From: a virus
Length of the DNA: 64,000 nt
Reading direction: 5' to 3' (one strand)
IMG/VR virus record: IMGVR_UViG_3300045988_096785
Location: 41,968 to 105,967 of that record
Made by a program: the position numbers and the translations under genes. The notes below the pieces were generated by a model. It saw only the letters and a list, made by a program, of their open reading frames with translations, was not told the origin of the DNA and searched no databases. Below are positions 5,676-60,471 of this stretch, one piece after another. Position 1 is the stretch's first letter; each line of letters opens with the position of its first letter.

Positions 5676-7955
5676 TTGTCTAAAATATTTATCACTATGG
5701 GTGTCAAATGTCAGATAGAAAAAAAGGAAAATGAAATAAAACGGGTTAAGGCTCCTAACGGTGAGCCTTCCGTTCTTTACGAAAGTGCTTTAAAAGTATT
5801 AGGAAACAGCGAGCGGGCCCTTCAGGTATGGGCTAAGGCTTACACTCCTGGTTTTTTGTCGTATTACGGTCATTGGAACAACCCGGCTCCAGGGGAGATG
5901 TTTAATACCGATTCCAATGGTGAACCTCTCTTAGAAGACGTGCTGTCGTATATGAAGCGTCAGACTTATTTTGCTGATCCTTTAACGGCTCAGGACATTA
6001 AGGATGTAAGGGATTTCCTTTTGTCTACTCATTATTTTTTCAATGCGTCTTCATTGTCTAATGCTATCCTCTTCGATTTTTATGTAGATGGCAGTTTGAT
6101 ACTGAATGAGCAGAAATTAAGGGGATCCGGTTTGTATGATGAAACAGAAATAAGTCGTATTTTATCCGATCCTTCTGTTTTAAACGAGGTTTCGACTTCC
6201 ATGAGAAAGTTAATAGATTCTTCTATTAACGAACATGATAGGGAAAAGGATAATTATTTTATGTCTGTTGACTATCAGTATGGTCCTATTGTTTACAAGG
6301 AGGGAGTGTTTAACCAATTTGGTAAAAAAGTACCATATAATCCTTCTGAGCTTTATTATGCTATGCGTAAAACAGTAGCCGGCATAAAAAACTTTTCTGA
6401 ATTTTCATCTGCTTTTGAATCGTTGAGAAATTCATATCCTGAACTGGTTGAGAAATTCGTTTCTGATAAAGAATTTGCCGAATCTATGTTTGATGAGTTC
6501 TCATCTACGAATAAGATTCCGGTAATAAACATAGAAGGGGATGATGTGGTAGAAGGCAAGAGAAGATCCTTGTCTAAGCTACAAGATCTGTCTTATTACA
6601 ATCCTGGCAAAATAGAGTTCCTAAGAGCTCGTATATCAGCTTATTTACATAGGGCTAATGCCGACACCGAATCCGATTTAAGAAGCATGATATGGGATAT
6701 AGAAGAGGCTTGTACGTGGTTTGGCATAGATATAATAGGGACATCGGAAACTTATGATGGCACAGAAGAATCTTTGAATAAGATAGATAATTTGATGCTG
6801 GATCTTGATATTTATGTGGCCAGGCATAATGATGTAAATTATGCTCCAACGCTGGCATCTTCTATGGATGATGTTCTTGGTGATAGCACAGATTATTATT
6901 TTGGATTATTGCCGGAATATATGGATAATTTGAATATCGTTTATTCTGAATCTGATATAGACCCAGTAGAAGCATTTGAGAAACATTCATTGCTTAAGGT
7001 AGGAGATAATCTATATCAAAGGATCAGCAAAGATGATCTTAACGAGATGTATCAAATATCAACAGTGTTAGCCAAGCACAACCTAACTCATTTTTCTACT
7101 AAAATATATCCTGAATCTTGTTTTAAGAACGGCGTTTTGGATAAAGAGAAAGTACGGAACGTAGATGATAATACGCTCATGGATTCTATAAAAAAATACG
7201 TCAGATCGTTTATGGATTCTCAGAACACGGAGGACATGATAATGACCAGGCTGGCGTTTGGGCATCCGGCGGTACTTGACGTTCCTTACGTGGATGTGGA
7301 TCGGGAGTATAGTCGATACATGAACAAAAAACAAGATAGCGAAAACCCATTATCCTTATTCGATTTATACCAATCTTACCTTGACAACAAACTCCATAAA
7401 ACAAAATTATATGATAATGCCTATAAGTATCTTGACTTCAAACCTGGTCCATCTTTGGGTCTTATTTCTGATGATCCTGATATTTTGAAATCAATAGAAT
7501 TATCTTTATCTGGAAAAGACAGGTTGATGTTGTTTGATTATAGCATGACCAGTACCGACCCTTCTTTATCAGAATTGTTTTATTTGGAGAAGTATGACTC
7601 TTCGTATGCCGGGAATGATTTTGAACACTATTTTTACACCAGGCACCCGTATCTGTTAAAAGAAAAATCGGGCCCTAATATCGTAGAGCAAGATGGTGTT
7701 ATAACAGCCGAAGGTATTTATGATAATTTTATAAGAGTAGGTAATAAGATATGGTCTAAAGTAAGCGAAAGTAGTTCCGGATCTATCTACCAAAATCTGA
7801 CAGGAACCGAATCGGAGGTGAAATACGATTCTACTCAGAAGGCTAAGGTAGTAGAAACCGATTACGCTCCATACCAAAACAGATCTGGCTTGACGCAAGA
7901 CATGACCGTAAGCAAGTCTGAATTGGATGATCTTAACAAATTAGAATGCAAATAA
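5676..7955 (+). CDS. Hypothetical large protein (759 aa), possibly structural
   Basis: Long ORF co-oriented with the structural block. No recognisable motifs. Confidence 0.6.
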   Translation: MSKIFITMGVKCQIEKKENEIKRVKAPNGEPSVLYESALKVLGNSERALQVWAKAYTPGFLSYYGHWNNPAPGEMFNTDSNGEPLLEDVLSYMKRQTYFADPLTAQDIKDVRDFLLSTHYFFNASSLSNAILFDFYVDGSLILNEQKLRGSGLYDETEISRILSDPSVLNEVSTSMRKLIDSSINEHDREKDNYFMSVDYQYGPIVYKEGVFNQFGKKVPYNPSELYYAMRKTVAGIKNFSEFSSAFESLRNSYPELVEKFVSDKEFAESMFDEFSSTNKIPVINIEGDDVVEGKRRSLSKLQDLSYYNPGKIEFLRARISAYLHRANADTESDLRSMIWDIEEACTWFGIDIIGTSETYDGTEESLNKIDNLMLDLDIYVARHNDVNYAPTLASSMDDVLGDSTDYYFGLLPEYMDNLNIVYSESDIDPVEAFEKHSLLKVGDNLYQRISKDDLNEMYQISTVLAKHNLTHFSTKIYPESCFKNGVLDKEKVRNVDDNTLMDSIKKYVRSFMDSQNTEDMIMTRLAFGHPAVLDVPYVDVDREYSRYMNKKQDSENPLSLFDLYQSYLDNKLHKTKLYDNAYKYLDFKPGPSLGLISDDPDILKSIELSLSGKDRLMLFDYSMTSTDPSLSELFYLEKYDSSYAGNDFEHYFYTRHPYLLKEKSGPNIVEQDGVITAEGIYDNFIRVGNKIWSKVSESSSGSIYQNLTGTESEVKYDSTQKAKVVETDYAPYQNRSGLTQDMTVSKSELDDLNKLECK

Positions 7956-8000
7956 TTTTTGTATATATATAATATAGTTTTTTCATAGTTATAATTTGGG

Positions 8001-8032
8001 AAGTGAGGCTTGTGAAAGTCTCACTTTTCTTA
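8001..8032 (+). terminator. Rho-independent terminator after the 759-aa gene
   Basis: GTGAGgcttgtgaaagtCTCAC hairpin followed by TTTTCTT. Confidence 0.55.
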
Positions 8033-8453
8033 TATATGCACGTATATCAATAACATACAAGAAAAGTTAGATTTTCGTTGTTTATGAATTATTTTTATTA
8101 AGTTTGCAATATTAGTTTCAGGAAGGGATTATAGAAAATAGGGAAGGTAAGAACAGAACGTAACTAATAACGGTAGGAAATGAGAATCAGTACCATCAAA
8201 CGTAATAACAGCATTCATCTTATGTATAAAAAACATTATGAATGATTTAGGTCAATTAAGAACTGTAGTTTCAAAATCCTATATTTATAATCTGATACGA
8301 AATCAAACCGGATTAAGTATCAGAACTATATCCCATGTCTTGAATCACACAAAAGAACAGGATACAGATTCTTTGTGAAAAGCGTACATTTTCATACATT
8401 TGTGTATTCTTTAGTTTTTAGATTTAAGTTTTTTCATGGTATTAGTTTAGAGA

Positions 8454-8490
8454 TCAGGGCTCGCAGTGATGCGGGCCCTGGTTTGATTTA
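8454..8490 (+). terminator. GC-rich hairpin plus T-tract inside the long intergenic region. Possible sRNA terminator
   Basis: CAGGGCtCGCagtgatGCGgGCCCTG followed by GTTTGATTT. Confidence 0.4.
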
Positions 8491-8652
8491 CAGCGCTTTA
8501 CCCAAAATGGGAAAAGCGTAAGTTTCTGATTATCAGTTTTTCACCTTAAATGGGGAAAATTAATTATTGTGTATTATACTTCCGTTTTTGCTGAAAATAC
8601 TTCTCTTCTATAGGAAATAAACACACCTGTATTCCACTCTACAATCATGATC

Positions 8653-8692
8653 TTTGTTACGTGCTTCATGCACGTATGTTTAACAATTAAAT
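8653..8692 (+). promoter_or_regulatory. Bacteroidetes-type promoter candidate (-33 TTTG, -7 TAtgTTTA) overlapping a perfect palindrome TACGTGC-N4-GCACGTA (8658-8676)
   Basis: TTTG at 8653-8656 and TATGTTTA at 8675-8682, about 19 nt apart. The palindrome could be an operator. ATG at 8703. Confidence 0.4.
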
Positions 8693-8702
8693 ACTATAAA
8701 TT

Positions 8703-9710
8703 ATGGGTGGTGATAAAATCGTCCTTTTAGATGGAGCCGGGGCTAACGGTGGTGGTGCAGCCGCTAACGGTCTTCTTTCAATGATTCCCGGCATGTTTGC
8801 TAATTTAATAGGTGGTAATAAAATGGATCCGAATCTGGTGGCGGCTTTGATGAATGGTCGTAACAACCAGGACGGTTTCGGTGGGGCTAACGGTTGGTGG
8901 CTCTGGATAATTGTTTTGTTCTGGCTGTGGGGTGGACGCGGCTTCGGTAACGGTTTTGGAAATGGTGGTGATTGTTGCGCCAATGGTTTACCCGCTCAGT
9001 TGAATAACGATTACGGTCGTGAGCTTCTGATGCAGGCAATTCAAGGTAATCGTAGCGCTATAGATCAGATCGCTTCTGCTTTGAACTGTTCTACTACTCA
9101 ACTTCAGAACGCTATCTGCAACGTACAGGGTGCTATTGATAAAGTAGCTGGTCAGGTAGGTATGACTTCTCAGGCTGTTATCAACGCAGTTCAACAACAA
9201 GGTTGTGAAATCGGAAATCAAATCAGCTCTTGCTGCTGCAATCTGAGTTCGTTGATCAATCAAAGCACTTGCCAGACTCAGGGAATGATTACTCAGCAAG
9301 GTTTTGATAACCAGCTTCGCACGTTGGAACAAACCAATATCTTGCAGAACGGTCTCAACCAAGGTCTGGCTAACAATCGTGAGCAAGCTACAAGCCAATT
9401 TAATATCTTGTCTGCGAAACTTGACGCTCAAACCGTTATGATCAACGACAAATTCTGTCAGTTGGAAATGAGGGAGATGCAGAACACTATTGCTCAACTT
9501 CGTGAAGAAAAAGCGGCTTTGACAGCTTCGGCATTATCTCAGCAACAAACCCAGAATATCGTTGGTCAATTACGCCCGACGGCCGTCCCAGCCTACCCCT
9601 CTTGTTCTCCTTACCAGGCTTATTCTTGGGGACAGGTATTCGGAGGAGGTTACTGCAATAACGGATGTGGATGTAACAACGGATGTTGCAATAACAACGC
9701 TGCTGTCTGA
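8703..9710 (+). CDS. Gly/Trp/Cys-rich protein with a central coiled-coil (335 aa), hypothetical
   Basis: N-terminal Gly-rich region. Trp-rich hydrophobic segment WWLWIIVLFWLWGG. Gln-rich coiled-coil. C-terminal CCNNGCGCNNGCC. Confidence 0.6.
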   Translation: MGGDKIVLLDGAGANGGGAAANGLLSMIPGMFANLIGGNKMDPNLVAALMNGRNNQDGFGGANGWWLWIIVLFWLWGGRGFGNGFGNGGDCCANGLPAQLNNDYGRELLMQAIQGNRSAIDQIASALNCSTTQLQNAICNVQGAIDKVAGQVGMTSQAVINAVQQQGCEIGNQISSCCCNLSSLINQSTCQTQGMITQQGFDNQLRTLEQTNILQNGLNQGLANNREQATSQFNILSAKLDAQTVMINDKFCQLEMREMQNTIAQLREEKAALTASALSQQQTQNIVGQLRPTAVPAYPSCSPYQAYSWGQVFGGGYCNNGCGCNNGCCNNNAAV

Positions 9711-9733
9711 TTTTATTAAGAGAGGAGGCTAAT

Positions 9734-10147
9734 ATGGCTTGTGTTTCTAAAATAGGATCGTTGTATGAGATGGTTACGAAGAATGTTATTGTCAGTACGA
9801 CAAATACAATCTTCGGTATTAACCCACGGGCTTGGATCGCCCTTCCGTGTGAGGGTCTTATCCTTCTTAAGATAAGGCAAGTAGTCCCCACAGCCGGAAG
9901 TGCTCTACCGGTACAGATTGCGGTCCCGGCAAACAGCACAGTTTCAACAGTAGGAGCCGACACCTGTTGCTCGGTTACGGGAGTGAATGTCGTGAACCCT
10001 ATTAACGTAGCTGTAACGGGTGCTGCTATGGTAAATGGCACAGAACGCCTTCTGTACTTCAATAAAGTTCGTGGCGTGTTAAGATTAATGGATTGCTGTG
10101 TTCCAGTAGCGGCAGCCCAGGCGTCTGAAGTTAAAGCAGGTAAATGA
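9734..10147 (+). CDS. Hypothetical beta-rich protein (137 aa)
   Basis: ORF directly downstream of and co-oriented with 8703..9710. Confidence 0.5.
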   Translation: MACVSKIGSLYEMVTKNVIVSTTNTIFGINPRAWIALPCEGLILLKIRQVVPTAGSALPVQIAVPANSTVSTVGADTCCSVTGVNVVNPINVAVTGAAMVNGTERLLYFNKVRGVLRLMDCCVPVAAAQASEVKAGK

Positions 10148-30194: not shown

Positions 30195-30538
30195 AAGTCA
30201 TTGTCTTTAAATCCTTCCGGGTAATATACGACATACTTCTTACCGTCTTCTGGTGTCATGGCAAACTGCATGTAGTTATTACGATTACGATGCTTGCCAT
30301 CCAATCCTCGTTTCCAATACAGGATACCGTCTATATCCACATAAGACCGTCCGCGTTCGGCTCTAACCACGTCCGTGTGTAGCAGATACCCGTCGGAAGA
30401 CACAATCCACACTTTATCCCCTTTGTTTAAATAAGATATTCTTTTTCTTACTATAATCTTTTTCTTATTATCCAATACAAATTCCTCGTCAGTCATACTC
30501 TTCATCCTCCTCTTCTTCTGTTTCAAAATCAATTCCAT
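30191..30538 (-). CDS. Hypothetical protein (115 aa)
   Basis: ORF overlapping the nuclease start. Confidence 0.45.
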   Translation of the reverse strand: MELILKQKKRRMKSMTDEEFVLDNKKKIIVRKRISYLNKGDKVWIVSSDGYLLHTDVVRAERGRSYVDIDGILYWKRGLDGKHRNRNNYMQFAMTPEDGKKYVVYYPEGFKDNDL

Positions 30539-31067
30539 ATCTCATATTCTATTAAATATATTTAAAGCTATTCATATGTTTTAATACATCCCCTCGGAGA
30601 CCTTCCGGTCTCCTTGGTAGATGTAAATCCCGTTAGGGATAAGTCAGGATTTCTCCTGTAAGTACCCATCGCCAATGTTATAAGAGGTTTTATATAATGG
30701 CAACACTGTTTCGTCAAATACACTACTCCTGTTTAATCACCATCCTTAGAGCAAGAAACTTGGATAAACATTCCTTGGTAACTATTTATTCTCAAATAAC
30801 GTAGCCTCTGTTTCAAGGCTTAGGCTAATAACCCGATCTCTGAAAGAGATGTATTAAACTTTTATAATAGAATTATATTGGGTTAATACTATTTGGGGTT
30901 ATAACACCGATCATAATGCTTGGTCAGTTCTTCTGGTTCTAAATCTTGTCCAAAATCCATGTTAAAAATATCGTAATTAGTAAAGCACTGTTCCTGCCGG
31001 CAGGAAATCTATGAATGCTGCTTTTATTTCTTCAATTAGGCCCAAGTGTAACCTTGGGCCATTGTAT
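30539..31067. other. 530-bp structured noncoding region. Contains perfect hairpins GGAGACCttccGGTCTCC (30596-30613) and GGCCCAAGtgtaacCTTGGGCC (31039-31060), and the 16-bp palindrome TTCCTGCCGGCAGGAA (30991-31006)
   Basis: No ORF of 60 aa or more. Several perfect inverted repeats. A T-tract follows the 31039-31060 hairpin on the plus strand. Confidence 0.5.
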
Positions 31068-31283
31068 TTATTTTTTGTCATCTCCTTTTAATTTCTTTAA
31101 AGTATCTGCAATCGGAAGCTGATCAATGACTCCCAATGCCGGAGCGACGGTCTTAACAACATTGTTAAGGAAATTACCGGTACTGTTCTGACCGCCGTCA
31201 AATACCGTGATATTTCCGAGGTTAATGTGCTCAAATGCCTTAACCTGTTCTCCGGCAATTTCTTTCCACTGATTAACCATCAC
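31068..31283 (-). CDS. 71-aa ORF resembling a flotillin C-terminal tail, in a different frame from the upstream flotillin gene (possible split or frameshift)
   Basis: GTG/ATG start overlaps the flotillin stop. ITVFDGGQNSTGNF...APALGVIDQLP resembles Gly-rich flotillin C-termini. Confidence 0.35.
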   Translation of the reverse strand: MMVNQWKEIAGEQVKAFEHINLGNITVFDGGQNSTGNFLNNVVKTVAPALGVIDQLPIADTLKKLKGDDKK

Positions 31284-32764
31284 TGGATGGCGATCTGAGG
31301 ATTGGATTCTGCTGCTTCCACCATAGCCTTAAATCCGTCGGCTTCTGCCATTAACGACTTTTTCTTACCTTCGGCTTCTGCCTCCAGTTTCATCTGAATA
31401 GCCTTTGCCTCTGCCTCAGCTTTTGCCAAATGTGCTGCCGCCTCAGCCTCAGCCCGGCGTTTGATCTTCTCTGCCTCAGCATCAGCTTGTAATATAGCCT
31501 CTTCCTTCTGGGTTTCAGCCGGCACAATCTTTTCAGCCTTAAGCGCAGCCTGAACTTTCTTAGCCTTAGCTTCTTCCACTTCTTTGTCGGCAAGCTCTTT
31601 TGCTGTTTTTACAGCCGCTTCCGATTTAACTCTCTCTTCTCCGGCTTTCTTTTCTGATTGAGCTTTGATAACCTGTAGCTCTGATTCTGATACAGCAACC
31701 TCTTTCTGAGCATTGTTGTAGCCTACAGAAGCATTTTTCTCAGCCTCAGCTTTCTTAATCTGAGCTTCAGAGTCTTGTATTGCTATAGCTGCTTGTTTAT
31801 CAGCTTCAGCTTTATTCTTCCCGACTTCTTCCATTCTTTCGGCTTCAGCTTTGTTTACTTCAAGTTCTGCCTTAGATCTTGCGATCGCTGATTCCTTATC
31901 AGCCAAAGTCTTTGCAATAACCGCAGCCCTATCTCTATCGGCTTGAGCTACACCGATCTGTTTTTCTTTATCGGTTAAAGCCAAAGCTACTTCTTTTTCT
32001 TTCTTTGTTTCAGCTACTACCGTTTCCTTTTCTTTTTCAGTATAGGCAATTTGAATCTCTTGCTCTTTTTGGGTATTAGCTACAGCCGTTTCTTTTTCCT
32101 TTTGCTGTACAGCAATCTTAATAGCACCCAGTTTCTCCTGTTCTTCGATATTAGCCTGTGCTTCGTTCAGAGCCCTACTTTCAGCCTCCTTACCAAGGTT
32201 CATAATATAACCGGCTTCGTCTCTGATGTCACTGATGTTGATGTTCAGGAGGTAAAGACCTAACTTATTAAGCTCGTTATCAATGTTCTTTCTTGCCTTA
32301 TCCAAAAACTCATCCCTGTCAGAATTAAGTTTTTCGATTGTCATTTCAGCAATAATCAAACGCATCTGACCGTAAACGATGTCCGTAATAAGATTTTCAG
32401 TAGATTCGGTATCCATCCCCAAAAGTCTTTCTGCCGCATTTTGCATGATTTCGGGATTTGTACTGATAGCTACTGTAATGGTCGTAGGTACATCTACTCT
32501 AATATTCTGAGATGACAAAGCACCGGTAAGCTTGCAATCTATTTGCATAGGCTCCATAGACAAAATATCATAGCTTTGAATAATAGGCAAGACGAATGCC
32601 GCTCCACCATGATATAATTTCGCCGATTTCTTTTCCCCACCTGTCTTACCATAAACGACCAAGACTTGATTAGGCTTACATCTACGATACCTTGATAAGA
32701 CTCCGATGATTGTCAAAATAATCACTACAGCTAAAATAGCTGACACGTACATGATTGTTGTCAT
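31280..32764 (-). CDS. Flotillin-like SPFH/band-7 protein (494 aa)
   Basis: N-terminal transmembrane helix. SPFH core (VLVVYGKTGG...AAFVLPIIQSYDILSMEP). Long Glu/Ala/Lys-rich coiled-coil. Confidence 0.8.
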   Translation of the reverse strand: MTTIMYVSAILAVVIILTIIGVLSRYRRCKPNQVLVVYGKTGGEKKSAKLYHGGAAFVLPIIQSYDILSMEPMQIDCKLTGALSSQNIRVDVPTTITVAISTNPEIMQNAAERLLGMDTESTENLITDIVYGQMRLIIAEMTIEKLNSDRDEFLDKARKNIDNELNKLGLYLLNINISDIRDEAGYIMNLGKEAESRALNEAQANIEEQEKLGAIKIAVQQKEKETAVANTQKEQEIQIAYTEKEKETVVAETKKEKEVALALTDKEKQIGVAQADRDRAAVIAKTLADKESAIARSKAELEVNKAEAERMEEVGKNKAEADKQAAIAIQDSEAQIKKAEAEKNASVGYNNAQKEVAVSESELQVIKAQSEKKAGEERVKSEAAVKTAKELADKEVEEAKAKKVQAALKAEKIVPAETQKEEAILQADAEAEKIKRRAEAEAAAHLAKAEAEAKAIQMKLEAEAEGKKKSLMAEADGFKAMVEAAESNPQIAIQ

Positions 32765-32797
32765 AACTTTTAAAATTTAATTGTTGATAAAAAAAAA

Positions 32798-33292
32798 TTA
32801 GATGCTTAATTCTCCTTCTTCGTATTTTATATTCACCTTGTCACCGTTTTTGTAATTTTTTCCAGACAAGCATCTTACTCTCATTTGCTCTTGTCTTCCA
32901 TTTTTCACAATATTTACCATATAATGATTCTTCCCTGATCTAAACACTATCTCCACCTCTCTGCCATTTAAATCTTCCGGACATTCGTACACCATTTCTT
33001 GCTTTAACTTAAGAAGTAACTTATATACATAAAACAAAACGATAAAGAAAAACGACCCTATTACGACCCCTACTAAATGGGAACCCGAAAAGTATGTGGT
33101 CCAGCTATATCCAAGAATAAAATGTGTTATGCCCTTGAATGATATGATGTCCGACAAAGACATGCTTAAATCAGAAGCGCTGTTAATGTCAATATCCGTA
33201 TCCAGATCAGATCCTAATATCGACAACAAAAACTGTATAACAAAAGCAAATGACGCTATTAAAGCCATGCATAAAATTATATCACTTCCCAT
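32798..33292 (-). CDS. NfeD-like membrane protein with a C-terminal OB-fold (164 aa)
   Basis: Two hydrophobic helices then a beta-rich C-terminus. This is the classic short-form NfeD partner of SPFH proteins. Overlaps the acyl carrier protein gene. Confidence 0.6.
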   Translation of the reverse strand: MGSDIILCMALIASFAFVIQFLLSILGSDLDTDIDINSASDLSMSLSDIISFKGITHFILGYSWTTYFSGSHLVGVVIGSFFFIVLFYVYKLLLKLKQEMVYECPEDLNGREVEIVFRSGKNHYMVNIVKNGRQEQMRVRCLSGKNYKNGDKVNIKYEEGELSI

Positions 33293-33533
33293 ACCCTTCT
33301 GTTATTATTTTGTAAACAAGATCAGTCATATCTTTGATGGTCTCCATATCATAATCAATAATAACAATATTGAATTTTTGTTCCACCATCGCATCAAGCT
33401 CAATTCGATCAATAGAGTCTAATCCAAGTTCTTTAAACGACACATCTTCTTCATGAACTATATCCATTTCCGAATTAAGAAACTGAGTAATAATTATATC
33501 CTCTATTATCTTTCTGATTCTTACTTTTTCCAT
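33282..33533 (-). CDS. Acyl carrier protein-like (83 aa)
   Basis: LGLDSIDRIELDAMVEQKF matches the ACP/PCP phosphopantetheine-attachment motif (DSL becomes DSI). Confidence 0.6.
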   Translation of the reverse strand: MEKVRIRKIIEDIIITQFLNSEMDIVHEEDVSFKELGLDSIDRIELDAMVEQKFNIVIIDYDMETIKDMTDLVYKIITEGYGK

Positions 33534-34234
33534 TGCTTTCTAATTTTGTTAAATAAGTATGTTTTTATGTTTTTCAATCGCTCTTTGTCTGTTTCAGAAC
33601 TTCCGGTAAACAAATAATCCGGATTGCCTTTAGCCGGCGGCGTAGGCAATTTAGATACGGCAAACAACCAATCCATTTCCTTATTCTTCTTAGACTCCAA
33701 ATAAGGCTCGGTAGCGATCTTAAATTTTTCAGCTATTAAGTCAAAGAGCTTTGAATTTTTAAGGTTCATATGGACTGAAAAAGCCTGAGAAGGCGGTTTC
33801 CATATGAAGTTACATAAGCTCATCGTATAATCTCCTGACTCTGCTATATAAGATTCCGTTACCTGAAGTATGACCTCTTTCTTGAATGAGGTGTTACCCA
33901 TAAACCAACATAATCTGGATTCCGCTTCTTTTCTGCTGACACCTATGTCTTTTGAATATGATTCGTACATTCCTATCATAATCTTCAACGTTTCTAGGAC
34001 CTCGTCCGTCATTTCCGGTGTCTCTATATAATTCACAAAAGACGTTCCTTTGTTGGTTAATCTCATCACACCTGATTTTAATTTCTCAACCAGGCCAAGC
34101 TCTATATACCTCCCAGCATCTTTTTCCAGCATGGCTTCGATCATAACCGTATCCTTCTGTCTTATAGCAAGAAGATTAGCCAGATCATTAGGGGTCATGT
34201 CTGATGCTGCAAGTTGTCTGAAATTGATGTACAT
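33521..34234 (-). CDS. Hypothetical protein (237 aa)
   Basis: ORF translationally coupled to the acyl carrier protein gene. Confidence 0.5.
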   Translation of the reverse strand: MYINFRQLAASDMTPNDLANLLAIRQKDTVMIEAMLEKDAGRYIELGLVEKLKSGVMRLTNKGTSFVNYIETPEMTDEVLETLKIMIGMYESYSKDIGVSRKEAESRLCWFMGNTSFKKEVILQVTESYIAESGDYTMSLCNFIWKPPSQAFSVHMNLKNSKLFDLIAEKFKIATEPYLESKKNKEMDWLFAVSKLPTPPAKGNPDYLFTGSSETDKERLKNIKTYLFNKIRKQWKK

Positions 34235-34236
34235 GC

Positions 34237-34446
34237 CTAATCAGCTTTAATAAAAATAACATCCTTACCATCCTCCCTCTCTACGTGATTACACGGGCCT
34301 GCGACTACATCTACCGACCCGCATGTAATGTGGTCGTTAAATATACATCCTTCACATCCTAAGTCTGGCTCTGGAGCATCCACACATTTTAATCTCACAA
34401 GTCCGGCATCAAACACTTCTCCTACTTTAAATTCCTTCTTTTCCAT
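34237..34446 (-). CDS. Small Cys-rich protein, member of a three-copy paralogous family (69 aa)
   Basis: KCVDA...GCEGCIF...C...PC pattern shared with 59304..59552 and 60739..61008. Confidence 0.5.
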   Translation of the reverse strand: MEKKEFKVGEVFDAGLVRLKCVDAPEPDLGCEGCIFNDHITCGSVDVVAGPCNHVEREDGKDVIFIKAD

Positions 34447-41648: not shown

Positions 41649-42317
41649 TTACCGCTCTTTTGATTCGTCCGACATAGGCATGTCAAACTTTTTCCTGATA
41701 AACGATTCTGTTTCTTCATTGAATGGATAGGCCTCCTTGATAAAATTCATAGCCACCTCCATGTCGCCATCTGCTATATCCTTATACCTCTCAAAGATGC
41801 CAACCATGTCGTTGTTATATGAACGCTCTTGTTTTATATTGTACACGTATTTCAATACCCTATCTTTGATTTCATTGGCTTTTTTCACGGTGTCATTGAA
41901 GGTATTTATACCTGTCAATTCAGGGTTTTTATTTTTCTCATCTATCTTATCAAACTCTTCCTCGCTATATCCTGTTTCTCCTTTAACAGCCGGGCAAACA
42001 CCCTCCTTCATGATCCAAAACTGTTCATACGATCCTGCCAGATATCTCGATTCTGTTTTAAATGCATTATACTTGACAAGCAAATTAGCCACCTCAGTTG
42101 CACCTTCTATGGTTCTAAAACCGATGCCGATATCTTTTAATACAAATAATGGAACTCCTGTTTTGGGGTACGAGATTTCTTTTTTGTTCTTTATATTCCA
42201 GTTTTTAGCTTCAATTGGAATACCTTTATTAGCAAGCTCTTTGTCTATATACAGACTTATGTCTTCGTCTGTCAATGCCACAATCTCATCTCTGCTTAAA
42301 TCAAAAACTGTTTTCAT
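41649..42317 (-). CDS. Hypothetical protein (222 aa)
   Basis: ORF. Confidence 0.5.
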   Translation of the reverse strand: MKTVFDLSRDEIVALTDEDISLYIDKELANKGIPIEAKNWNIKNKKEISYPKTGVPLFVLKDIGIGFRTIEGATEVANLLVKYNAFKTESRYLAGSYEQFWIMKEGVCPAVKGETGYSEEEFDKIDEKNKNPELTGINTFNDTVKKANEIKDRVLKYVYNIKQERSYNNDMVGIFERYKDIADGDMEVAMNFIKEAYPFNEETESFIRKKFDMPMSDESKER

Positions 42318-58908: not shown

Positions 58909-59142
58909 TTACAATACTTTTGTCCCACAATTGTTATATCGTCCGTACTCTTTTTTCGTATCATTCAAGATTTCAAACACCATCTTCTTATGATCTTTGT
59001 TTGGTAACTTGTCTTTAACAGCCGATATCACGCTCGCTATAGACGTAAAGCCTGAATCTGTTATTGAACACAACAACAAACCTCTGTCGTCGTCTGTGCT
59101 TATCGCTGACGCCTTTATAATATCATTCCTATATATTCTCAT
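58909..59142 (-). CDS. Hypothetical protein (77 aa)
   Basis: ORF. Confidence 0.35.
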   Translation of the reverse strand: MRIYRNDIIKASAISTDDDRGLLLCSITDSGFTSIASVISAVKDKLPNKDHKKMVFEILNDTKKEYGRYNNCGTKVL

Positions 59143-59320
59143 AATCTTTCGTTTTATTGTCTACAAACTTATCTATATCGTCTCTTATTCTTTTTAGCAC
59201 TCCGGCTATAATTTCCGGCATCTCTCCTTCGGTACGGTTCAGAGTTTCTATCACCCCATCAATCCTACCAATTTGACGCCATAAGAAATTGGCGTCTTTC
59301 GCATTAAATTCCCTCATCAT
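59129..59320 (-). CDS. Hypothetical protein (63 aa)
   Basis: ORF. Confidence 0.35.
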   Translation of the reverse strand: MMREFNAKDANFLWRQIGRIDGVIETLNRTEGEMPEIIAGVLKRIRDDIDKFVDNKTKDYENI

Positions 59321-59552
59321 GTCTTATTTTACAGTAAACAACTTGCTTTTTTAAGCACCAGTCTTGCGATTCTGAGAGTGAACACCGTTCGGAGTTGTTA
59401 AAAAATATACAATCTTTGCAGAACATAAGAGGATCTTCGTCGTCACCAACTACTTTGACATCATACTCTATACCATACAATTTTAATCTAAATACATCTC
59501 CTGTTTTTTTAGAAGACAAATCCATGTTCGGACCGAATGTTATTACTTCCAT
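59304..59552 (-). CDS. Small Cys-rich protein, paralog family member (82 aa)
   Basis: DLS..G..F..K..G...V.AKVV...C..CIFF.....C.LS.S...C pattern shared with 60739..61008 and 34237..34446. Confidence 0.5.
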   Translation of the reverse strand: MEVITFGPNMDLSSKKTGDVFRLKLYGIEYDVKVVGDDEDPLMFCKDCIFFNNSERCSLSESQDWCLKKQVVYCKIRHDEGI

Positions 59553-59572
59553 ATAATTATGTTTTATTGTTT

Positions 59573-59668
59573 GTGAGATGCCCAGAATCGAACCAGGACC
59601 GGCACATACATACCGGCACGCCGCGCCATCCCTCTATGATACACAAATAGACATGCCTATTCTCACGA
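59573..59668 (-). tRNA. Possible tRNA or tRNA-like element (T-arm GGTTCGATTCT plus acceptor-like CATCTCAC). Non-canonical by manual folding
   Basis: The plus strand shows CCCAGAATCGAACCAGG, the reverse complement of a T-arm. An intergenic GTGAGA...TCTCAC pairing spans about 94 nt. Confidence 0.3.
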
Positions 59669-59725
59669 ACCGACATGCCAAAACCCAAAACTTAATTTGA
59701 TGAATAAAATAGATTAACAAAAATA

Positions 59726-60040
59726 CTATTCTAATTCTTTTATAATATCTTTCACAATATTCAGCCTTACCTCCTTCGTTTCTGGACTAAGACAACCAAA
59801 CCACCCATAAAACGTTCTTGTTTCCTCTGGTTCTGTGGCCATACTTATCTTCTCTTCCAATTCCGGGAAATATATTCTCACCATTTCGTCTGAACGAAAC
59901 TCATAGATATTTTTATGTGTTTTGAAATACATAAACACTACATTTCTTAACGCAACACATATGTATTCCCCATCCTCTAACCTATCAATCATCTCATATA
60001 CCTTTTTCCATATGAATAATCGCTCTTCTTTTGTAAACAT
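59726..60040 (-). CDS. Hypothetical protein (104 aa)
   Basis: ORF. Confidence 0.45.
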   Translation of the reverse strand: MFTKEERLFIWKKVYEMIDRLEDGEYICVALRNVVFMYFKTHKNIYEFRSDEMVRIYFPELEEKISMATEPEETRTFYGWFGCLSPETKEVRLNIVKDIIKELE

Positions 60041-60054
60041 ATCCTTCTTTATTT

Positions 60055-60471
60055 TTATGGTATTATTTGACTGTATGCAGACTTTTCCATGTACACAATA
60101 TTATGCTCCTGTCCAAATATCTTCTTTGCCGCCTCTTTCTTTATCGCACAATATCTCCCTGTACGATACGGATTCTTTTGATCTGATCCATCCTCGACTT
60201 CGATAATAAAACAGCCTCCGTCATCTATTATCTTTTTGCAATTGTCACATACTCCGCCCGTGCATATATGATGCGGTGCCTGCCCTTTGATATTATTCCC
60301 TAATAAAGCAATGCCCATCTCTTCGCCACATATCATGCAGACTTCTATAGACGGATTCAATCCGTGTTCTGGATGTAATGTAACACCATCTTTCATTTTC
60401 TTTCCTCCTTTGTTTTTAATGTTGTGTGAGATCGCCGGAATCGAACCGACTTGCTGCACCATGAATCCCAT
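60055..60471 (-). CDS. Zinc-ribbon hypothetical protein (the real start is probably the internal Met MKDGVTL)
   Basis: CMICG...CDNC motifs. Confidence 0.4.
   Translation of the reverse strand: MGFMVQQVGSIPAISHNIKNKGGKKMKDGVTLHPEHGLNPSIEVCMICGEEMGIALLGNNIKGQAPHHICTGGVCDNCKKIIDDGGCFIIEVEDGSDQKNPYRTGRYCAIKKEAAKKIFGQEHNIVYMEKSAYSQIIP

Follow-up and report, generated by a model that had tools for sequence, protein, structure and literature searches.

Bacterial operons that pair a flotillin with a membrane protein of the NfeD type are widespread and their role is debated, with a scaffold function, an effect on membrane fluidity and a holdase function all having been proposed. In the canonical operon nfeD comes first and the flotillin gene follows, and the OB domain of NfeD binds the coiled coil of the flotillin (PMC11222466). 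The FloA-NfeD complex stabilises unfolded membrane proteins through an ATP-independent holdase activity (PMC11222466). Here, a two-gene cassette of this type, encoding an NfeD-like protein of 164 aa and a flotillin of the SPFH family, was analysed in a 64,000-nt stretch of virus DNA (IMG/VR record IMGVR_UViG_3300045988_096785, positions 41,968 to 105,967 of that record; called the window below, with positions counted from its first letter). The flotillin was found to be optional: it is selected where it is kept and has been deleted in about a third of the sampled related genomes. These presence/absence dynamics were unexpected and are the main new result.

A preliminary description of the window, made from its letters, had presented five co-oriented open reading frames (ORFs) as one functional unit. 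All five were found on the minus strand and are listed from the highest position downwards.

33521-34234, minus strand: 237-aa ORF, 13-nt overlap with the 83-aa ORF.
33282-33533, minus strand: 83-aa ORF, acyl carrier protein (ACP)-like, 11-nt overlap with the 164-aa ORF.
32798-33292, minus strand: 164-aa ORF, NfeD-like, first gene of the cassette, 33-nt gap before the flotillin ORF.
31280-32764, minus strand: 494-aa ORF, N-terminal 494 codons of the flotillin, with a stop that overlaps the start of the 71-aa ORF.
31068-31283, minus strand: 71-aa ORF, C-terminal fragment of the flotillin, separate through a frameshift.

The true unit is the cassette of the NfeD-like 164-aa gene and the flotillin, and the five-gene reading was not upheld: the 71-aa ORF is a piece of the flotillin, and the ACP and 237-aa genes are separable from the cassette, being its neighbours and not its components. 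The SPFH-NfeD pair had been likened to a known bacterial module, which is indeed the relevant one.

The block is phage DNA proper, because the entire window is collinear with ~87.9-151.3 kb of crAssE-Sib (OR575929.1, deposited as "csAssE-Sib", 151 kb, human gut), a complete phage genome that carries its terminase, portal, capsid and tail genes outside the matching part. Host DNA or a prophage edge, named in the preliminary description as a possible refutation, was rejected on the same grounds. The window is DNA of an epsilon crAss-like phage of the human gut, 92-95% identical to crAssE-Sib, and the gene block is 95% identical to its counterpart there at the DNA level. In GenBank the crAssE-Sib coding sequences WOZ57345-WOZ57348 are entered as flotillin family protein, transmembrane protein, acyl carrier protein and hypothetical protein; these four genes are not mentioned in the published analysis of that genome. 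No paper linking crAss-like phages and flotillin was found by literature search, and searches for SPFH or flotillin in phages found none examining a virus-encoded flotillin. The phage-borne NfeD-flotillin module belongs to a known kind of system and is partly annotated in GenBank, and no new kind of system is shown here.

The flotillin assignment was confirmed by profile search, in which Band_7/SPFH (PF01145) matched residues 30-211 of the 494-aa protein with 92.3 bits against a cut-off of 23.6 (E 4.9e-26). The N-terminus, read from sequence, has a hydrophobic stretch at residues ~5-23 (MYVSAILAVVIILTIIGVL) followed by RYRR, and this stretch would serve as a membrane anchor; a long Glu/Ala-rich coiled coil follows the SPFH domain. 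The best NCBIfam match was the FloT equivalog (NF058507) at 142.8 bits against a cut-off of 700, and the protein is flotillin-like, though no orthologue of FloT. No PHROGs or PADLOC model catches the phage flotillin. Among otherwise near-identical flotillins the coiled coil was seen to vary in length in frame, giving proteins of 481, 531-566 and up to 595 aa.

The 164-aa protein was not matched by Pfam NfeD (PF01957) at E≤0.1, and Pfam, PHROGs and PADLOC hold no model for it and NCBIfam gave nothing usable; among its relatives, Pfam NfeD matched 1/6 close family members (E 0.067) and 2/83 wider members (E≤0.01). An AlphaFold2 model (predicted local distance difference test score 72) has three transmembrane (TM) helices (2-25, 52-69 and 72-101) and a C-terminal beta domain, and the protein carries an acidic DxDxD loop. 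The best structural matches of the C-terminal domain, a five-stranded OB-fold, were the C-terminal domains of NfeD proteins including YuaF. When the phage family was aligned by hhalign with 17 proteins encoded upstream of bacterial flotillins, of which five match Pfam NfeD (E≤0.01), homology was found over the full length (99.2% probability, E 1.3e-19). The family comprises 404 representative clusters, and the top match of its profile among PDB sequences was YuaF, on the OB domain (E 0.035); phmmer searches of PDB sequences with the 164-aa and 237-aa proteins gave nothing significant. The gene lies directly upstream of the SPFH gene in the same orientation, as it does in the other phage lineages, in L084 and in chromosomal bacterial contexts. 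The protein is called NfeD-like because fold, profile-profile homology and gene order agree, despite the failure of Pfam; it belongs to a divergent family that has no model of its own but is like short NfeD proteins in architecture, fold and synteny. The NfeD assignment made earlier is therefore retained on these three lines, but not as a match to the Pfam, PHROGs or NCBIfam families.

Where the two genes are present they are under strong purifying selection. Ratios of non-synonymous to synonymous divergence (pN/pS) were 0.046 for the flotillin and 0.079 for the NfeD-like gene, with 0.059 for both the DnaB gene and the exonuclease gene that flank the block, and the synonymous divergence behind these values is substantial (pS 0.15-0.20). 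Searches with the TM protein, that is, the NfeD-like protein, returned ~26 distinct chimeric proteins in which TM-protein residues 28-146 are joined to flotillin residues 428-530, each representing a different deletion; a control search with the neighbouring 237-aa gene gave only 2-3 aberrant forms. For an unbiased sample, 80 IMG/VR contigs were anchored on the 237-aa gene, and 78 were informative, two ending within the region. The flotillin was intact in 51 contigs and absent or not intact in 27/78 (35%). Over 9 kb, 95-100% of contigs had each of the other genes, but 65-67% had the flotillin. At least nine deletion alleles were found in the anchored sample, the commonest of which takes out precisely the flotillin together with the small ORF that follows; other assemblies added at least 26 distinct alleles, and at least 35 distinct flotillin deletions were found overall (loci L171, L172 and L176-L252; equivalent to window ~31068-33292). 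All deletions have a common core at flotillin aa ~230-428, and all 14 in-frame fusions have right breakpoints at aa 428-530, in the last quarter of the gene. The NfeD-like gene was intact in 20/20 flotillin-less genomes, with a pN/pS of 0.107.

Several explanations of the deletions were considered and rejected. Assembly artefacts do not account for long collinear contigs from independent samples and two databases with unique junctions. Two variants inspected as DNA proved to be clean deletions, their contigs (69-83 kb) being intact elsewhere, and the microhomology at their junctions, only 0-3 nt, speaks against repeats as the cause. A single flotillin-less clade was rejected since losses are scattered over the tree built from the flanks and imply at least 14 state changes, to which recombination could contribute. 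The scattered loss reflects recurrent loss, recombination or both. Decay of functionless passenger DNA in the phage population would produce many independent deletions and a frameshift such as that in the window, but it is contradicted by the selection data: pN/pS of 0.046-0.079, as low as in DnaB and the exonuclease, at a pS of 0.15-0.20. The pair is moreover conserved across lineages (flotillins 76-82% identical, TM proteins 60%) and ~65% of genomes keep the cassette intact, and we consider passenger DNA highly improbable.

In crAssE-Sib a 50-aa ORF is annotated just after the flotillin and overlapping its end (window 30911-31067, L001 7576-7728). It is broken in the window by a 10-nt deletion, is co-deleted with the flotillin in the commonest flotillin-less allele, and may not be a real gene.

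The flotillin of the window itself is split. The preliminary description had counted the 71-aa ORF as a gene of its own; DNA alignment with crAssE-Sib traced it to a small deletion within a 566-aa flotillin.

31279-31285 (~31283), minus strand: 4-bp deletion site, ACAA missing.

Loss of ACAA turns CAG TAC AAG ATG into CAG TGA TGG and so places a stop after codon 494; the new stop is overlapped by GTG/ATG (a TGATG stop-start overlap) and, speculatively, might permit re-initiation on the 71-aa ORF. Over residues 1-494 of the 566-aa flotillin of crAssE-Sib, the 494-aa ORF shows 97% identity. The 71-aa ORF corresponds to flotillin residues ~496-566 and matches the tails of intact flotillins at 81 loci with 98.6-100% identity; taken alone it gave a weak match to Flot (PF15975; 14.4 bits against a cut-off of 27, model positions 53-120 of 124), and in the intact flotillins of relatives (566 aa) PF01145 and PF15975 lie in one polypeptide. 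ACAA is kept in 78 of 81 related loci and deleted in none, the other three being unmatched by the search pattern, and the deleted junction had no match in IMG/VR. The frameshift is either a private truncating allele (loss-of-function or hypomorphic) or a sequencing error. Two shorter, abundant flotillin clusters, P0178 (507 aa) and P0210 (425 aa), were not counted as truncated alleles; they stop with no added residues, and contig ends have probably cut the genes short. Cluster P0193 (494 aa) is different from the 494-aa allele of the window.

Homologues of the pair in cells were sought by a flotillin scan of 185,579 species genomes. The closest cellular flotillins (64-65% identical) lie in three Prevotella-binned genomes (L091-L093), where a homologue of the phage TM protein, 171-172 aa long, precedes each of them, at loci with a G+C content of 52-55% against ~38% in the phage; in L092 (flotillin 64-66% identical) the neighbours (Peptidase_M13, ABC-F) indicate a chromosomal context. 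In L259, an unassigned metagenomic bacterial scaffold that is chromosomal by its lysyl-tRNA synthetase and chorismate synthase neighbours, the flotillin is 49% identical and the gene upstream of it encodes a 165-aa protein that shares 38% identity (E 1e-38) with the phage TM protein. On the short metagenomic contig L084 the two genes are adjacent at 36-39% identity with no ACP upstream. An ACP was absent from all homologues of the pair that were examined, whether on bacterial chromosomes or, as in L084, on a short contig. The L091-L093 and L259 pairs are the closest homologues of both phage genes (flotillins 49-65% and TM proteins 26-38% identical over full length) and resemble the cassette in their equal spacing, their order and their lack of an ACP; they differ in having housekeeping chromosomal neighbours and, in L091-L093, a higher G+C content. 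To judge by these sequences, the cassette was probably copied from a Bacteroidota-type chromosomal two-gene operon.

We favour, with some reserve, the reading that the cassette is a captured host-type nfeD-like/flotillin operon that would give the infecting phage an optional scaffold or holdase at the membrane. The flotillin would be anchored at the cytoplasmic face of the inner membrane by its N-terminal hydrophobic helix and would oligomerise through its long coiled coil, on which the OB domain of the three-TM NfeD-like protein would dock, by analogy with bacterial FloA-NfeD (PMC11222466). Acting as a scaffold or holdase without the use of ATP, the assembly would then stabilise the membrane proteins of the infected cell or the integrity of its membrane, and such a module would be beneficial under some conditions only. 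Remodelling of membrane microdomains by the phage, as proposed in the preliminary description, is a reasonable idea of what the pair may do.

SPFH complexes of the HflKC type regulate FtsH and the stability of lambda CII. On this established precedent, an SPFH assembly of the phage could cage or modulate a host membrane protease (e.g. FtsH) and so sway lysis-lysogeny or persistence, and Epsilonunoviruses do encode a repressor and anti-repressors (PMC11054128). The protein is, however, of the flotillin type (Band_7 and Flot, with FloT as best NCBIfam match well under its cut-off) and unlike HflK/C, its partner is NfeD-like with no second SPFH paralogue, and lysogeny is unproven in this phage group; a regulator of this kind is considered very unlikely.

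The survival of an intact NfeD-like gene in flotillin-less genomes suggests that the NfeD-like protein can also act with the host's own flotillin. Carried further, the NfeD-like protein would be the core effector, docking on host or phage flotillin and taking over the membrane-microdomain or holdase machinery of the host during infection, and the phage flotillin would be a conflict-driven optional partner held as a balanced polymorphism, which would be lost repeatedly where it is costly, sensed or targeted and kept where it is needed in other hosts. This is a rather doubtful extension; if true, it would give the first bacterial virus known to manipulate flotillin microdomains, in a common human-gut phage group.

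The cassette has the conserved 237-aa and ACP genes on one side and the exonuclease gene on the other. The block is flanked by genes for a DnaB-like helicase and a PD-(D/E)XK exonuclease (Pfam, PHROGs), and its placement in a replication or early module was borne out, the block lying between DnaB-side backbone genes and the exonuclease. Across loci the conserved backbone runs DnaB - 200-aa gene - 237-aa gene - variable cargo - PD-(D/E)XK exonuclease, and the cargo differs as follows.

Window, L082 and L258 (flotillins 82% and 76% identical): ACP, TM protein and flotillin.
L086 and L087: ACP-like gene, DNA methylase and two radical-SAM genes, without flotillin.
L088: no cargo, the 237-aa gene abutting the exonuclease.
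L089 and L090: other genes.

The block is a composite at an accessory-gene hotspot in the replication/early arm. Such a hotspot would also suit a conflict module, which would act in superinfection exclusion by blocking the entry of competitor DNA or would protect the membrane from depolarising abortive-infection effectors; the presence/absence polymorphism would then mirror a benefit and a cost that depend on host or competitor. The location among early genes agrees with this, as does the DNA methylase and radical-SAM cargo of the sister lineage, plausibly for modification or counter-defence, and so does a sharp presence/absence polymorphism in which the flotillin has been lost many times independently but is strongly selected against change where it is retained. 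Against it, no PADLOC model matches the NfeD-like protein or the flotillin, and the close chromosomal homologues sit in ordinary housekeeping contexts. To our knowledge no SPFH-based exclusion or anti-defence system has been described, and none was found by literature searches. A conflict role is judged unlikely, and a scaffold or holdase captured from a host-type operon remains the preferred reading.

The association of the cassette with the ACP had been part of the preliminary description, in which the ACP hinted at a lipid-linked or pantetheinylated component. The ACP assignment itself is sound: PP-binding (PF00550) matched the 83-aa protein with 28.4 bits against a cut-off of 20.8, the protein has an LGLDSID motif and it falls in phrog_5934; thresholds of the named NCBIfam ACPs (AcpP and others) were not reached (best 29.1 bits against cut-offs of 66-146). 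All of the population sequences (151/151) keep the attachment Ser. The combination of SPFH, NfeD and ACP recurs in the window, L082 and L258, but the ACP is also found where the flotillin is deleted, being present in 98% of related contigs irrespective of flotillin status, and is absent from the bacterial pairs. Its pN/pS of 0.39 within the phage species, against 0.05-0.08 for its neighbours, makes it ~5-8 times faster at non-synonymous sites, and the changes cluster just after the Ser (L/V/I, Q/R, E/D and V/M/A), in the partner-recognition helix.

These data bear on a model in which the ACP, the NfeD-like protein and the flotillin form one unit whose carrier, pantetheinylated or acylated, would provide microdomains built by the phage with a lipid-linked component. 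The co-orientation of the ACP and NfeD-like genes with their 11-nt overlap and the invariance of the canonical Asp-Ser motif in all 151 genomes would fit it, and a preprint predicts that another phage ACP binds host FabZ (10.64898/2026.03.01.708874). Opposed to it are the retention of the ACP regardless of flotillin, its fast evolution relative to its neighbours, the chromosomal pairs and L084 without an ACP, and the L086 orthologue, which lies beside methylase and radical-SAM genes with Asp in place of the attachment Ser. Further, the complete 151-kb genome of crAssE-Sib has no gene annotated as a phosphopantetheinyl transferase, acyltransferase, synthase or other acyl-handling enzyme, a result from annotation only in a genome with many hypothetical genes. 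The model is thought very improbable, conserved linkage gives no support to the earlier hint, and the ACP is a separate accessory gene, evolutionarily separable from the NfeD-like/flotillin cassette.

The L086 set lies at 6675-9946 of a 154-kb epsilon crAss-like contig of the sister lineage. Its ACP-like protein, the positional orthologue, passes PP-binding with Asp for Ser (LGFDDLD) and is followed by the DNA methylase and the two radical-SAM proteins; from its gene content this set could be a DNA- or metabolite-modification cassette using a non-carrier ACP fold.

The 237-aa gene is not part of the cassette because in relatives it neighbours other cargo (L086) or the exonuclease directly (L088). 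Nothing usable was returned by Pfam, PHROGs, NCBIfam and PADLOC scans of its product; a weak LmuC match (E 0.002) was set aside, the fold search having given a MarR-like winged helix-turn-helix, located at the N-terminus. The family reaches down to 36% identity at constant length. The 237-aa protein is a core replication-module protein that probably binds DNA. Between the 200-aa and 237-aa genes a 69-aa Cys-rich ORF (window 34237-34446; sole match phrog_33085) is 54-100% identical among relatives (median 64%) against 97-100% in its neighbours, which suggests allelic replacement or very rapid evolution.

Two further features lie beyond the flotillin end of the block.

31039-31060, no strand assigned: G+C-rich hairpin (GGCCCAAG...CTTGGGCC), 8 nt past the flotillin stop, conserved in crAssE-Sib.
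30537-30900, minus strand: 364-nt insertion absent from crAssE-Sib, upstream of a 115-aa gene and right after GTGTTAT.

The hairpin possibly ends the transcription unit as a putative terminator with no T-run on the minus strand. In the region of the insertion a HEARO RNA (IscB-type omega-RNA family) was detected at 30658-30902 on the minus strand (Rfam RF02033, full-length, 95.2 bits against a gathering score of 83), with no IscB-sized ORF beside it. The element is present in 11/78 related contigs at 98-100% identity; it is an independent polymorphism outside the module and possibly a non-autonomous element of the IS200/IS605 insertion sequence type. A part of the HEARO element in driving flotillin loss was rejected (Fisher p = 0.50). 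TnpB/OrfB_IS605 genes were noted at differing sites (L082 13497-14288, L087 1592-2812, and crAssE-Sib 58986-60125 and 64190-65413), and elements of the IS200/IS605 type appear to be active in this phage group.

When set beside known systems, the window is closest to crAssE-Sib, which has the four corresponding genes at 95% DNA identity and differs in its intact 566-aa flotillin and in lacking the 364-nt HEARO element. A more distant case is the unrelated Vibrio phage KIT04 (T5-like, Demerecviridae; LC487410.1, L257 2680-4350), whose 473-aa Band_7 flotillin, 29% identical, follows directly on a small protein with three TM helices and an acidic DLDD loop; the resemblance of that protein to the membrane half of the NfeD-like protein comes from sequence features only, and it differs from the NfeD-like protein in its length of 82 aa and its lack of an OB domain, with no ACP annotated nearby. 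As a natural genetic experiment, the phage cassette supplies matched genomes that have or lack the flotillin, and an orphan NfeD-like gene, for comparison when a host has been obtained. Its likeness to the bacterial operons (B. subtilis yuaF-floT, S. aureus nfeD-floA and the E. coli yqiJ-yqiK type) extends to the order of a membrane NfeD-type gene and then a flotillin on one strand, to a flotillin with N-terminal anchor, SPFH domain, Glu/Ala-rich coiled coil and (unsplit in the intact relatives) Flot C-terminal domain, and to a partner built of N-terminal TM helices and a C-terminal OB-fold. Unlike those operons, it is virus-borne, its partner protein is too divergent for Pfam NfeD, its flotillin is no FloT orthologue, and the flotillin is dispensable, having been deleted in about a third of genomes.

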